Source of the DNA: an uncultured Gammaproteobacteria bacterium
GTDB lineage: Bacteria > Patescibacteriota > Patescibacteriia > SBBC01 > CAIJZX01
Reading direction: 5' to 3'
Assembly (NCBI GenBank): GCA_964383765.1
Contig: CAYLHT010000001.1
Coordinates: 100,998 to 164,997 of the forward strand
Length of the DNA: 64,000 nt
This document shows, piece by piece, positions 3,234 through 30,855 of this stretch. The notes below the pieces were generated by a model, which ran no database searches, had not been told where the DNA came from, and saw only the letters and a program-made list of their open reading frames with translations. Positions within the stretch are counted from its first letter, which is position 1. Each line of letters begins with the position of its first letter. The position numbers and the translations under genes are program-made.

Positions 3234-4238
3234 CTACGTGCTTGCCGAAAGACTGTCAACCACTTTCCAACCGCCGCCAGATTTGATTATTTTCCCACGC
3301 ATCCGAAATCCAGCGGCTTTGGTGTGCCCGCCGCCCCCGAATTGTTTGGCAATCGCGGCGACGTCAATCTCGCTGGTCGTGCGCAGGCTTCCCTTAATGA
3401 ATCCCCCGCGTTCCTCCTTTACTACCAAAGCGACTTTCCCATCACTCAAACTGTTGAGGAAATTAGAAATTCCGGTTGCCGCTCGATCATCCACGCCGCA
3501 CTCATGAAAATCTTGCAGGGTCAGCACCGTGGAGACGACGCCGGTCGCTGTGTTTAAGTTGAGACGCGATAGCGCCCGGCCCCATAACTGAAGTGTGCCA
3601 ATTGATTTATTGCGCATGGTGGCGGCGGTGATCGTCCGGTGATCCGCACCATAGCGCATCAGCTCCGCCGCGATTTCCATTGACTCTTGATTCGTATTCA
3701 AATGGGCAAAATGTCCGGTGTCCGTCAGAATTCCGGTCAGCAACGCCGTGGCCACGTGGGGCGTGAGCGGAACACCAAGGTGTCGTAGCAAACGGAACAT
3801 AATAATTGTGTTGGAACTAGCGCTAGCATCAATAAAATTATGATCAACCGCGGATTGGCCTTTGTGCTCGATCACGGTTGGATGATGATCGATGTTGACG
3901 ACGCTGGTTTTTGTTTGGTCACGTTGAATAAGCTCGTCAGCCAATGGACTGCGTTTAATGTCGCCGGTGTCGAAAATAATTACGAGTGGAAAGGCGTGAA
4001 CGCTGTCCGGCAACTCCGACATAATCCGATGGGGTTTCGTGAGGTACCCAAACATAGCCGGAATCGGGTCAGGCGAATACAGAATTGATTCCTGGCCGTA
4101 GTGCCGGACAACGTGATCCATGGCCAGCATTGAACCGAGGCTATCCCCGTCCGGCTGGGTGGTCATGGTCAGCAGCACACGTGGACTGGCTTTCAACAGT
4201 CGGTCGAGGGTTTGGGCGAAATGTTGGTCGGGGGGCAT
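3234..4238 (-). CDS. nrnA: DHH/DHHA1 phosphoesterase, NrnA-like oligoribonuclease/pAp phosphatase
   Basis: 334 aa with a DHH motif region (NIDHHPT), DHHA1 and the C-terminal GGGGH motif (FGGGGHTKAAGF). Confidence 0.75.
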   Translation of the reverse strand: MPPDQHFAQTLDRLLKASPRVLLTMTTQPDGDSLGSMLAMDHVVRHYGQESILYSPDPIPAMFGYLTKPHRIMSELPDSVHAFPLVIIFDTGDIKRSPLADELIQRDQTKTSVVNIDHHPTVIEHKGQSAVDHNFIDASASSNTIIMFRLLRHLGVPLTPHVATALLTGILTDTGHFAHLNTNQESMEIAAELMRYGADHRTITAATMRNKSIGTLQLWGRALSRLNLNTATGVVSTVLTLQDFHECGVDDRAATGISNFLNSLSDGKVALVVKEERGGFIKGSLRTTSEIDVAAIAKQFGGGGHTKAAGFRMRGKIIKSGGGWKVVDSLSAST

Positions 4239-4402
4239 TGGGGAAATAAAAGCCTGGGACTGTACCTGAAACAGGACTAATCGTCAAGGATTGCTTGACC
4301 GTGGGTCCCTCCGGGCGTATCGTGCCGATAACGCGAGGAGGGGCGACGTTCCTTCCATTCCGAATATCGAAACCGCAAGTGGGCCGCACGGAAAGCGAGG
4401 CT

Positions 4403-9932: not shown

Positions 9933-10304
9933 AGACTAATAAGCATTGCTATTTTACGCGTCCAATTTCACTTATGTCAACTTAGATTTGGCAAAGAACA
10001 GCAGATTGGGAAAGGACGCTATTTCGTATTAAATTGATGTCATGTTCAAAAGAACATCAATCTCCAAACAAACTTACCTTTGCGTAATCAGGCAAATTTC
10101 CCTAAACTAGTTCGGCGTATGGAAGACCGGCACATAAAAAAGGACCTTCTACACATACTACTACTGGTAGTTTTTGTAAGCGTCTCACTCGCCATTATCA
10201 GATACTTCGACAGCAAAAATCATTTTACGACTCAAATTGTTTCAAAGTTAATAAAATCACTCTAGTTTAGGTTTTACGACACGTGGAACACTGTTCCTCA
10301 ACTC

Positions 10305-10346
10305 GCCCCTGTAGCTCAACGGATAGACCTGCCCGCCATTGCCTGA
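10305..10346 (+). pseudogene. Degenerate tRNA-Arg-like 5' fragment (acceptor 5' strand plus D-arm), 'outer' gene split by an inserted hairpin-tRNA
   Basis: GCCCCTG-TA-GCTCAACGGATAGAC resembles the 5' end of a tRNA-Arg. Its 7-nt acceptor strand is exactly complementary to CAGGGGC at 10479-10485. Confidence 0.4.
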
Positions 10347-10419
10347 GCCCCCATAGTTCAATTGGATAGAACGGCCCCGTCCTAAGGGGCAAAACTTGGT
10401 TCGAATCCAGGTGGGGGCA
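10347..10419 (+). tRNA. tRNA-Arg (anticodon CCT)
   Basis: Manual cloverleaf: acceptor GCCCCCA/TGGGGGC, D-arm GTTC..GAAC, anticodon stem GCCCC/GGGGC with loop GTCCTAA, T-arm CTTGG-TTCGAAT-CCAGG. No encoded CCA. Confidence 0.8.
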
Positions 10420-10433
10420 CTGGCGAAGGCAGG

Positions 10434-10488
10434 CGGGGCAATCCCGTCCTAAGGGAGAGATAGAGGTTCAATTCCTTTCAGGGGCACC
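10434..10488 (+). pseudogene. Degenerate tRNA-Arg-like 3' fragment (anticodon arm CCT, T-arm, acceptor 3' strand, ACC)
   Basis: TCCC-GTCCTAA-GGGA anticodon hairpin, T-arm AGAGG-TTCAATT-CCTTT, then CAGGGGC-A-CC complementary to the 5' fragment at 10305-10311. Confidence 0.4.
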
Positions 10489-10621: not shown

Positions 10622-10716
10622 ATTGAAATGTTCCACGTGGAACACTTGAAAGTTTTTAAATGTTCCTCGCGGAACAGTGTAAAATTTGTTAATGTTCCTC
10701 GCGGAACACTAGATTT
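10622..10716. promoter_or_regulatory. Array of three 17-nt palindromic units TGTTCC(A/T)CG(T/C)GGAACA(C/G) separated by 15-nt AT-rich spacers; a fourth related copy lies at 10281-10298
   Basis: TGTTCCACGTGGAACAC, TGTTCCTCGCGGAACAG and TGTTCCTCGCGGAACAC recur at about 31-32 bp periodicity between tRNA-Ala(GGC) and tRNA-Ala(CGC). They overlap candidate -35/-10 elements (TTGAAA, TTGTTA...TAGATT). Confidence 0.5.
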
Positions 10717-10745
10717 GGGCCTGTAGCTCATCTGCTAGGCTTGCG
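10717..10745 (+). pseudogene. Degenerate tRNA-Ala-like 5' fragment (acceptor with G3, D-arm remnant), 'outer' gene
   Basis: GGGCCTG-TA-GCTCATCTGCTAGGC is tRNA-like. Its acceptor pairs with CAGGTCA at 10879-10885, including G3:U70. Confidence 0.45.
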
Positions 10746-10853
10746 TCCAGCCCCACTTCTGAAGGGCCATTAGCTCAGTTGGCAGAGCGTCGCATTCGCA
10801 TTGCGAAGGTCAGCGGTTCGAATCCGCTATGGTCCACCAGAAGTGGGGCTGGA
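10746..10853 (+). repeat. Perfect 14-bp inverted repeat (TCCAGCCCCACTTC / GAAGTGGGGCTGGA) enclosing tRNA-Ala(CGC)
   Basis: The left arm 10746-10759 and right arm 10840-10853 are exact reverse complements. The loop is TGAA plus the 76-nt tRNA. Confidence 0.8.
10764..10839 (+). tRNA. tRNA-Ala (anticodon CGC)
   Basis: Acceptor GGGCCAT/ATGGTCC with G3:U70, anticodon stem TCGCA/TGCGA with loop TTCGCAT, T-arm AGCGG-TTCGAAT-CCGCT, CCA encoded. Confidence 0.85.
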
Positions 10854-10888
10854 AGGTAAGGGGTTCGAGTCCCCTCAGGTCAACCAAG
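10854..10888 (+). pseudogene. Degenerate tRNA-Ala-like 3' fragment (variable loop, T-arm, acceptor 3' strand, ACCA)
   Basis: AGGTA-AGGGG-TTCGAGT-CCCCT-CAGGTCA-A-CCA has a perfect T-arm but no anticodon arm. Confidence 0.45.
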
Positions 10889-10898
10889 TAATCTAGAC

Positions 10899-10919
10899 AT
10901 ATACCCCCGGGGGGTATAT
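10899..10919. promoter_or_regulatory. CsoR-type operator-like palindrome ATATACCCCC-G-GGGGGTATAT; may also act as terminator hairpin of the tRNA operon, as a T5 run follows
   Basis: A 10-bp perfect inverted repeat matching the GC-core/AT-flank architecture of CsoR/CstR family operators (ATACCC...GGGTAT). It lies about 180 bp upstream of the CsoR-family gene at 11098. Confidence 0.45.
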
Positions 10920-11097
10920 AATGTTTTTATGCGTCCCGTTAGAGATTTTTCAAAACAATCTGCCTTTGAATCGACAACGACCCTGCATCGACAGAGCCCC
11001 TTGAGATGTATACATACGCAGGTCTTTCAGAAGCATGACTAGCACGTCAATTTTTCCATGACCGGACAACTATTTAGTAACGTCAATCTCTAACGGG

Positions 11098-30582: not shown

Positions 30583-30650
30583 TGGTCGGGGTACCGAGAC
30601 TCGAACTCGGGACCTCCTGCTCCCAAAGCAGGCGCGCTTCCAGGGCTTCA
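30583..30650 (-). pseudogene. Truncated tRNA-Pro(TGG)-like 3' fragment (D-stem 3' side through CCA)
   Basis: The reverse complement reads GCGC-G-CCTGC-TTTGGGA-GCAGG-AGGTC-CCGAG-TTCGAGT-CTCGG-TACCCCG-A-CCA. No complementary 5' acceptor strand is present; hairpins (GTCCCG-ATTA-CGGGAC etc.) lie upstream. Confidence 0.45.
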
Positions 30651-30759
30651 CCGTCCCGATTACGGGACAGGGCTCAGCCCGTCTCGGCGGTCGCGAGTGA
30701 AGCAGTTCACTCGCTGTTTCCGCCTCGACCCAACTTCGCTACTCGACATATGCCCGCAG

Positions 30760-30832
30760 TCGGGGCGGCGAGACTCGAACTCGCGGCCTCCTGCTCCCAA
30801 AGCAGGCGCGCTACCAACTGCGCCACGCCCCG
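30760..30832 (-). tRNA. tRNA-Pro (anticodon TGG)
   Basis: The reverse complement has acceptor CGGGGCG/CGCCCCG, D-arm GCGC-AGTTGGTA-GCGC, anticodon stem CCTGC/GCAGG with loop TTTGGGA, and T-arm GCGAG-TTCGAGT-CTCGC. Confidence 0.85.
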
Positions 30833-30855
30833 ACAGCGGGCACTTACACGTGCGG

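Follow-up and report, generated by a model that had tools for sequence, protein, structure and literature searches.

A tRNA-Arg(CCT) gene nested inside another points to hairpin-armed tRNA replacement cassettes in a presumed Patescibacteria genome

At positions 10305-10488 of the DNA analysed here (a 64,000-nucleotide stretch of contig CAYLHT010000001.1, hereafter the window), one tRNA-Arg(CCT) gene lies inside another. An intact inner copy (10347-10419), clamped between GC-rich arms whose ends read CCTGCCCGCC...GGCAGGCGGG, separates the two halves of a disrupted outer copy, and all parts are read from the forward strand. Very probably, positions 10328-10437 are a 110-nt DNA cassette, without a promoter or an open reading frame (ORF), that holds a complete tRNA-Arg(CCT) between its terminal arms and was put into a resident tRNA-Arg(CCT) gene. 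A preliminary description made from the letters of the window had singled out the region as an intact tRNA, flanked by a bulged stem, within a degenerate tRNA-like gene; on reading the sequence, all the pieces it quoted were located at, or at most 1 nt from, where it had placed them.

The 5' part of the outer gene (10305-10327) comprises the acceptor 5' strand GCCCCTG, TA, the D-stem 5' strand GCTC, the D loop AACGGATA and residues G22 and A23. It was recognised from its sequence, from the cloverleaf it forms with 10438-10486 and from the ARAGORN call on the spliced product. The left arm of the cassette follows (10328-10346; CCTGCC-CGCC-ATT-GCCT-GA), delimited by sequence and inverted repeat, with the terminal motif of family A, CCTGCCCGCC, at 10328-10337, then an inner helix strand and a leader of 2-3 nt. 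Its 10-nt end is identical in locus L034, located through synteny rather than a pattern search, and in metagenomes, where at least 91 distinct copies have it. The inner gene is called Arg(cct) by ARAGORN at 10347-10420 and is matched by Rfam RF00005 at 10347-10419 over model positions 1-71 (57.7 bits against a gathering threshold of 29; E = 2.3e-11); it thus has the score above threshold, the full cloverleaf and the anticodon expected of a tRNA gene. CCA is not encoded, and we presume this copy to be the working gene. The right arm (10420-10437; CT-GGCG-AA-GGCAGG-CGGG), defined by sequence, folding and inverted repeat, contains GGCGAAGGCAGG at 10422-10433. The 3' part of the outer gene (10438-10488) starts with G24, C25 and A26, followed by the anticodon arm ATCCC-GTCCTAA-GGGAG, AGAT, the T arm AGAGG-TTCAATT-CCTTT, the acceptor 3' strand CAGGGGC, a discriminator A and CC (among its pieces, TCCCGTCCTAAGGGA at 10442-10456, AGAGGTTCAATTCCTTT at 10462-10478 and CAGGGGCACC at 10479-10488). 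This part rests on sequence, on the ARAGORN call on the splice and on homologous outer halves in L061, L099, L129 and L076. A repeat search returned the flanking inverted repeat as 10321-10353 and 10412-10444 (33 nt, 76% complementary).

Exact removal of the insert reconstitutes a canonical tRNA, as expected of a disrupted gene. Splicing 10305-10327 to 10438-10486 gives a 72-nt product with the D stem GCTC/GAGC restored, whose minimum-free-energy fold is the canonical cloverleaf (-28.1 kcal/mol; none of 500 shuffled sequences was as stable) and which ARAGORN calls tRNA-Arg(cct). The tRNA signal expected by the preliminary description from the joined outer halves is therefore present, and neither half occurs independently anywhere else in the window. 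The insertion falls exactly between nt 23 and 24 (..GGATAGA/GC.., the slash marking the junction), with no target-site duplication and no base duplicated at the junction. The outer D arm, earlier taken as degenerate ('GAC'), owes that appearance to a misplaced boundary: the GA (ending at 10327) precedes the junction, and the inserted arm opens with the C. The outer copy is lightly damaged, having an A27.G43 mismatch, one G.U pair in the T stem and a 4-nt variable loop. It shares 68% identity with the inner copy, the acceptor, D and T stems being different. The full 184 nt fold as outer acceptor and T arm, bulged arm helix and inner cloverleaf (z = -4.15).

Run on the raw region, ARAGORN and Rfam reported the inner gene and did not call the outer one. 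The intron mode of ARAGORN likewise returned inner tRNAs only, because it models introns of the anticodon loop only. A brute-force splice scan was too permissive to fix boundaries, which were set by comparison with L034 and the metagenome copies. No promoter was predicted inside the cassette, no Rfam family matched the arms at permissive E-values in the window region or in eight element-bearing loci, and a phage BLAST returned generic tRNA similarity only.

The arms belong to a widespread family. Scanning metagenomes with the pattern CCTGCCCGCC-N75-105-GGCAGGCGGGGC gave at least 120 stretches; the bulged 10-bp stem noticed earlier is the terminal arm pair of this family. After removal of GC-rich chance matches, at least 91 distinct family-A copies were retained. 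At least 31 distinct copies carry an ARAGORN-callable tRNA (29 from the metagenome scan, plus the window and L034), the cargo among the listed copies being Thr (CGT, TGT, GGT), Arg (CCT, TCG), Val, Pro or Ala. Thirty of the 31 listed tRNA-bearing copies sit inside a tRNA gene for the same amino acid. No mismatch of amino acid between cargo and host was found among the listed nests; two of them combine different isoacceptors for the same amino acid (L159, by ARAGORN; L160, by eye). This confinement to tRNA genes points to possible targeting by homology or structure. Nearly all listed nests are inserted at ..TAGA/GC.., that is, at nt 23/24. On the left flank, which the search pattern did not force, G stands at -2 in 75 and A at -1 in 71 of the 91 listed copies, and ..GA precedes the element in ~80%.

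Arg(CCT) nests homologous to that of the window occur in L061, L099, L129 and L076, and L129 also has a short IF-2 gene beside its nest. As read from the sequences, the intact inner tRNA of L129 is of the type of the window's outer copy, the 47-nt cores differing at one position. The cargo of one round thus becomes the victim of the next. Outer tRNA types occur uninterrupted elsewhere, as the L129 inner gene for Arg and in L030, L032 and L175 for Ala. A scan of viral contigs gave 15 family-A matches, none with a tRNA, and no family-B match. Eleven of the 15 lie in contigs with a GC content of at least 0.60 and look like chance, and L050, within a coding region, is a chance match; L039 holds a copy with non-tRNA cargo, and L040 and L047 hold mini-hairpins.

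The same arms also occur as an element without tRNA cargo. In about 60 of the 91 listed distinct copies no tRNA could be called. Almost none of these is located in a tRNA gene; their settings are repeat arrays between genes (for example CTAAAGTGA/.../GCTAAAGT and ATTTGGA/.../GCTTGTAATTT) or a larger inverted repeat. L141, L128, L059 and ~20 other loci have non-tRNA cargo in arrays of 9-10-nt CCTAAAGTG repeats on Desulfobacterota-like contigs. Taxon was checked for a few loci; the L141 contig is Desulfobacterota by its PdxJ protein, so the arm family spans phyla. Among the non-tRNA copies, 21 have conserved arms and flanks around a diverged 65-nt centre. One 42-nt copy without cargo sits with exact boundaries in a (CCGAATT)n array, and on a single contig, L128, an empty site (CTAAAGTGA/GCTAAAGTG) occurs together with a filled site; neither case has a target-site duplication. 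Left and right ends lying 0.1-4 kb apart, as expected of autonomous ORF-bearing copies, were sought in ~1 Mb of related loci and none was found. A sub-family in L088, L154, L074 and L094 lies within a larger inverted repeat, ACCCCGTTAGAGGTT...AACCTCTAACGGGGT, ~60 nt on either side, and is a palindromic element nested in another.

Two further nests are present in the window. At 10717-10886 (forward strand; sequence, ARAGORN, Rfam and inverted repeat) a tRNA-Ala(CGC) lies in a tRNA-Ala(CGC), in the same architecture that the preliminary description had seen mirrored there. The outer 5' part begins at 10717, the inner tRNA-Ala(CGC) spans 10764-10839 and the outer 3' part 10854-10886. The arms, TCCAGCCCCACTTC (10746-10759) and GAAGTGGGGCTGGA (10840-10853), form a perfect 14-bp stem unlike the Arg arms and define family B. 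Host nt 24-43 are largely missing, and the outer copy retains G3:U70. The other nest, partial and on the reverse strand (30583-30841; tRNA calls and direct sequence reading), has a tRNA-Pro(TGG) at 30832-30759 clamped by GCCCGC and GCGGGC, then a structured spacer of ~115 nt and the 3' two-thirds of an older tRNA-Pro(TGG) (30637-30583) ending in CCA; the outer 5' half is absent, and a tRNA-Arg(TCG) lies 20 nt upstream. The earlier judgement that chance is not at work holds, given that the architecture recurs at the Ala locus, partly at the Pro locus and in dozens of independent assemblies. Tandem 32-nt repeats, each centred on the palindrome GTTCCACGTGGAAC or GTTCCTCGCGGAAC, occupy 10623-10718 and ~10283-10300 of the window. 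They recur in L030 (430-515), L032 (3940-4015), L034 (3975-4025), L173 (1945-2025) and L175 (1913-1995), directly upstream of tRNA-Ala(CGC) and conserved in all relatives; the array looks like a set of putative binding sites for a dimeric regulator ahead of a tRNA gene.

The nests have common bacterial housekeeping genes as neighbours (a short IF-2, bactofilin, CsoR, thioredoxin, TrxB and GDH). The named homologues of TrxB are from Candidatus Kerfeldbacteria or Patescibacteria, which places the window, by protein similarity, on a chromosome of the candidate phyla radiation (CPR)/Patescibacteria. A TrxB scan of a genome collection found no close relative (best identity 44%), and as relatives we took contigs encoding a TrxB 64-66% identical to that of the window. 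A palindrome, ATATACCCCC-G-GGGGGTATAT (10894-10922), overlaps an 11/12 sigma-70-like promoter of the CsoR-thioredoxin-TrxB operon; its box TATACCCCCnGGGGGTATA is also found in relatives, and it is probably a CsoR operator.

Upstream of CsoR-Trx-TrxB, the sister genomes hold a syntenic cluster of Arg, Ala and Ala tRNA genes that is un-nested, singly nested or triple-nested. In L032 and L175 the Arg(CCT), Ala(GGC) and Ala(CGC) genes are all plain; in L030 both Ala genes, (GGC) and (CGC), are plain and tRNA-Arg is absent. At its ends, the uninterrupted Ala(CGC) of these three contigs matches both outer pieces of the window's Ala nest, which are therefore the resident gene. In L034 the Arg(CCT) lies among decayed older halves and the Ala(GGC) is nested three deep. 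Its Ala(CGC) nest has arms identical to the window's Arg arms (GGTAGA/CCTGCCCGCC...GGCAGGCGGG/GCG), and with the insertion removed the gene is a flawless tRNA-Ala(CGC). The second family-B nest is also in L034, and its stem differs from that of the window's at three places, all compensatory. In L173 the insertion in the same Ala(CGC) gene is at the anticodon loop, with arms of a third kind, CCCGAACC/GGTTCGGG. In sister lineages one and the same gene has thus received a tRNA-Ala(CGC) from each of three arm families, A (CCTGCCCGCC...GGCAGGCGGG), B (TCCAGCnCCAnTTn...) and C, family B being known from two examples and family C from one.

Other features of the sister contigs were recorded alongside. 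Just downstream of both intact Ala genes of L175 lie orphan 3' ends of older tRNA-Ala genes (1860-1880 and 2100-2145), one preceded by a family-B-like right arm (AAAGTGGTGCTGA); they appear to be remnants of previous rounds of replacement in which the two tRNA types had swapped the roles they have in the window. Between TrxB and GDH, L175 has a gene of the bAvd / 23S_rRNA_IVP family (4031-4393), an accessory protein of diversity-generating retroelements, which suggests that reverse-transcriptase systems may exist in the lineage. The contig of L030, the closest NCBI relative, starts at the expected tRNA-Arg site with the apparent C-terminal end of a transposase ORF (1-110). The contigs of several relatives (L029, L030, L035) break near the tRNA cluster.

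Family-A arms are built of 4-nt units (5' CC-UGCC-CGCC-au-UGCC, 3' GGCG-aa-GGCA-GGCG-GG), which allow two alternative bulged 10-bp helices in registers 4 nt apart, one abutting each junction. The inner helix varies by pairs (GCCU/AGGC versus GUACU/AGUAC). Taken with the compensatory changes in family B, this covariation indicates that arm pairing is maintained. Family-A arms are nearly symmetric, and flipped copies occur with the cargo still in host orientation; in one of these, in a tRNA-Pro (L072), the junction is still 23/24 and the flank is GC. The unforced arm segments are not more conserved than the cargo (0.62-0.70 versus 0.67-0.74).

Ten of the 31 outers, including those of the window and L034, are callable with the same anticodon and 18 are uncallable, through deletions, extra mini-hairpins (TCCGCCnnnGGCGGA, CCTGCCnnnnGGCAGG) or loss of one half. 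This spectrum of decay fits relaxed constraint and argues that the outer copies are dead pseudogenes and not exons. Across 30 nests, an inner copy resembles its own outer copy (0.71 and 0.64 for the 5' and 3' halves) about as much as copies for the same amino acid from unrelated contigs resemble each other (0.69 and 0.58); the inner gene therefore came from elsewhere and did not arise by local duplication. In the anticodon and T arms of disrupted outer tRNAs of L055, L071, L076, L093, L110, L129 and L131 we also observed tiny hairpins (TCCGCC-nnn-GGCGGA, CCTGCC-nnnn-GGCAGG), which point to a second layer of very small mobile hairpins.

These comparisons establish that the insertion is exact and took place at the DNA level, that the outer halves were formerly an intact tRNA, and that the cargo is a whole tRNA of host identity. 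They likewise establish that the arms form a large element family with different tRNAs or other cargo, that the outer copies decay and that layers stack up to three deep. With considerable confidence, we interpret the element as a promoter-less, hairpin-armed tRNA replacement cassette. The preliminary description had proposed a recurring mechanism, either cassette insertion or hairpin-mediated duplication; the first part is borne out by the uninterrupted sister genes and the arm family, and the second is contradicted by the 68% identity of the window's copies and by the inner-outer similarities. The cassette would be co-transcribed from the promoter of the resident gene, because only 19 nt precede its tRNA and no promoter is predicted inside, and this dependence would account for the cargo always being in the orientation of the host gene. 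The arm helix, a GC clamp stacked on the acceptor stem, would isolate the cargo as its own folding domain and prevent it from pairing wrongly with the outer halves that resemble it. The inner tRNA would then be freed by RNase P and the 3' processing enzymes, and the split outer halves, non-functional, would drift. Since the tRNA gene destroyed by the cassette is usually present in a single copy, the cassette must supply the lost function, and cargo and host therefore share their identity. The shared anticodon may mean that only cognate insertions survive, or that a nested allele spreads when its outer halves pair homologously with the cognate gene of another genome.

Two routes of movement can be envisaged. 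By transposition, family-A arms would move alone, leave no target-site duplication and prefer ..GA on their left. Among known chemistries this would be likest to HUH-type single-strand transposition, one defining feature of which is missing. By homology-guided allele replacement, the outer halves would act as short homology arms held together by the hairpin; the near-confinement to cognate tRNA genes, the similar behaviour of three arm families and the 23/24 position regardless of flank favour this second route. We give the two routes about equal weight, and one may act after the other. CPR cells are believed to rely on taking up DNA, and a T2SSE/PilB-type ATPase is encoded in the window. As a tentative and somewhat doubtful extension, the cassettes could be selfish, 'overwriting' their targets by actively homing to the cognate tRNA gene, guided by homology or tRNA shape, rather than merely surviving there by selection; for example, the hairpin of a single strand taken up by the cell might bring the two outer half-arms together. 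If this is true, tRNA genes would turn over rapidly and become layered in CPR bacteria, driven by homing cassettes that encode no enzyme. Recombinase models of the serine and tyrosine type were tried and rejected on reading the sequence, the two junctions sharing no dinucleotide or core.

Several observations weigh against the replacement-cassette interpretation. Neither a transposase, nor an autonomous partner, nor an excision product was found in the ~1 Mb of related loci, and scanning ~30 genes of the window revealed no transposase. Three unrelated arm families act alike, unlike what is expected of one arm-specific enzyme. Random transposition followed by selection predicts more than the one tRNA-cargo copy outside tRNA genes seen among the 31 listed. 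The tRNA-Pro insertion of L072 keeps the 23/24 position although its flank is GC and not GA. The metagenome sample was picked by exact arm sequence, so it gives no measure of arm conservation. Finally, ten outer copies, that of the window included, are still nearly intact, and an RNA-level rescue of the outer copy is possible.

Such a rescue would make the insert an intron: the 110 nt would be cut from the transcript and the outer halves ligated, so that one transcript yields two tRNA-Arg(CCT), either through a dedicated endonuclease and ligase or through RNase P and RNase Z, whose cuts would leave 3'-OH and 5'-P ends that an RNA ligase could join. Bacteria would then have a new class of intron, located at nt 23/24. 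The perfect cloverleaf produced by precise removal speaks for it, as do the ten intact outers among the 31 listed, the flawless Ala(CGC) outer of L034, the fixed position in the tRNA, even in tRNA-Pro, and the two alternative arm helices that each abut a junction. We nevertheless consider splicing improbable: 18 of the 31 outers are too decayed to call and accumulate extra hairpins and deletions, the cargo always duplicates the host identity, which is needed only if the host copy is killed, and the same arms are also found in repeat arrays between genes, where there is nothing to splice. Rfam gave no sign of a group I or group II intron up to E = 10, and bulge-helix-bulge (BHB) geometry was absent. 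Known intron types, taken as candidates in their own right, were set aside. For group I, there was no Intron_gpI match at E up to 10 in the window region or up to 1 in eight loci, and the 5' exon ends in A, not U; group II was rejected on geometry and the absence of Rfam matches; and as for an archaeal-type BHB intron, symmetric bulges are absent and the junctions are found at the base of a 6-bp helix and 4 nt past it. The fold of the whole region, far better than that of shuffled sequences (z = -4.15), might instead reflect a selected composite RNA, in which outer halves and arms are kept as a scaffold for the processing or stability of the inner tRNA, or as a two-piece tRNA-like molecule that stays behind once the inner tRNA has been excised. 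The G3:U70 pair kept by the outer Ala is the alanine identity pair, and in the Arg nests of L099 and L076 the outer 3' halves are better preserved than the 5' halves. On the other side, outer halves occur at every stage of decay in no conserved pattern, no compensatory changes were seen in their stems and sister genomes do without them, which makes this explanation very unlikely.

A copying of the resident gene in place to give the inner one, by hairpin-mediated or slippage recombination, would fit those few nests in which inner and outer copies are of the same sub-type, namely L129, the Ala(CGC) nest of L034 (identical 42-nt core) and nest 2 of L160 (acceptor strand). It does not account for the window, where the copies are 68% identical and differ in the acceptor, D and T stems, nor for the same arms carrying Thr, Arg, Val, Ala, Pro and non-tRNA cargo, and it is largely refuted by the equality of own and unrelated inner-outer similarity over the 30 nests; we see hardly any chance that it is correct. 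Mis-joining of similar tRNA reads from several strains in a metagenome-assembled genome has in its favour the frequent contig breaks of relatives near the cluster (L029, L030, L035). The same architecture and exact junctions appear, however, in independent NCBI, ENA, JGI and Logan assemblies made with different assemblers, and chimeras would not yield conserved hairpin arms or a junction fixed at 23/24, so that an assembly artefact is next to inconceivable.

A replacement cassette is therefore the reading we carry forward. Few genes are usually regarded as more stable than those for tRNA. On this reading, tiny cassettes would invade and replace them again and again in one of the largest radiations of bacteria, which would be a new way for tRNA genes to turn over and to be transferred horizontally. 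In a natural bacterial setting, the nests would illustrate how tRNA genes come to be split or interrupted, which bears on old debates over the origin of tRNA introns and half-tRNA genes. They would also represent a new type of mobility, with no ORF, no target-site duplication and a junction fixed to the nucleotide (23/24), whose chemistry could serve as a tool. For annotation, tRNA finders give the inner gene only, the outer halves go unannotated and assemblies tend to break at nests.

Among known systems, the cassette is like MITEs (miniature transposable elements with inverted repeats), the IS200/IS605-derived palindrome-associated transposable elements (PATEs), the repetitive extragenic palindromic (REP) elements and their paired form (REPIN), which are mobilised by REP-associated tyrosine transposases (RAYT) of the HUH type, and the Rickettsia palindromic elements: ~40-125 nt long, without an ORF, with ends that pair, present in many copies at unrelated loci in several phyla, and with a fast-evolving centre between conserved ends. 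It has the general features of a MITE, being 42-125 nt and non-coding with at least 91 distinct copies and with ends (CCTGCCCGCC against the reverse complement of CCCGCCTGCC) matching at 8 of 10 positions. It departs from a MITE in the strict, DDE-derived sense, since no target-site duplication is seen at 23/24, in the (CCGAATT)n array or in the L128 pair. The lack of a duplication is shared with PATE and REP elements, as is a specific left flank, ..GA in ~80% of the listed copies. Unlike IS200/IS605 and REP elements, the two ends pair together, and the 42-nt minimal copy has room for one hairpin only; GTAG precedes the element only in tRNA hosts (GGTAGA/). Like Rickettsia palindromic elements, the cassette lands inside genes, RNA genes included. 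What sets it apart from all of these small palindromic elements is that no partner enzyme was found for it in the loci searched and that its cargo is a complete, predicted functional tRNA replacing the gene it splits.

Phages, integrative and conjugative elements (ICEs) and islands that integrate into tRNA genes likewise enter a tRNA gene and bring sequence that keeps the tRNA functional. They measure kilobases, encode an integrase, target the anticodon loop, the T loop or the 3' end, replace the 3' part only and leave a direct repeat. The 110-nt cassette, in contrast, has no ORF and no repeat shared by its junctions, so it is not an att-type integrative element; it brings a whole tRNA, lands in the D arm and leaves two dead halves. 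Archaeal disrupted tRNA genes include non-canonical BHB introns (some in the D arm, and proposed to transpose in Thermoproteales) as well as split and permuted tRNAs. They share with the nests an interruption outside the anticodon by a short helix-bounded sequence and the recurrence of related insertions across tRNA genes; the nests differ in their bacterial host, in lacking BHB geometry, in the second tRNA of the same identity inside and in pseudogenisation rather than splicing. Integron cassettes resemble ours in their promoter-less cargo, external promoter, imperfect bulged hairpin site, conserved ends and variable centre. The nests differ in lacking an attI/integrase context and the R'/R'' core motifs, in having the hairpin on either side of the cargo and in being inserted into tRNA genes.

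Group I introns interrupt tRNA genes of Patescibacteria (PMC13011429), and these too involve an interrupted tRNA gene in the same phylum, a tRNA restored by removal and an outer gene missed by standard annotation. Our insert, however, is 110 nt and not >200, lies in the D arm and not in the anticodon loop, follows a 5' exon ending in A and not U, has no group I fold and is itself a tRNA, and its outer copies decay. That paper and a Thiomargarita paper describe different things. A literature search, which included the arm sequences as text, returned nothing on cognate-nested tRNA genes or on these arms; its coverage was incomplete and a prior description is possible. We know of no case of a small palindromic element with a complete tRNA gene that replaces the gene it splits, and small, widespread DNA cassettes overwriting the tRNA genes of ultra-small (CPR) bacteria have apparently not been described. 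Each of the known systems shares one aspect with the cassette and fails on a defining feature, and the cassette combines the traits of small hairpin mobile elements with those of tRNA-targeting elements that repair what they break.

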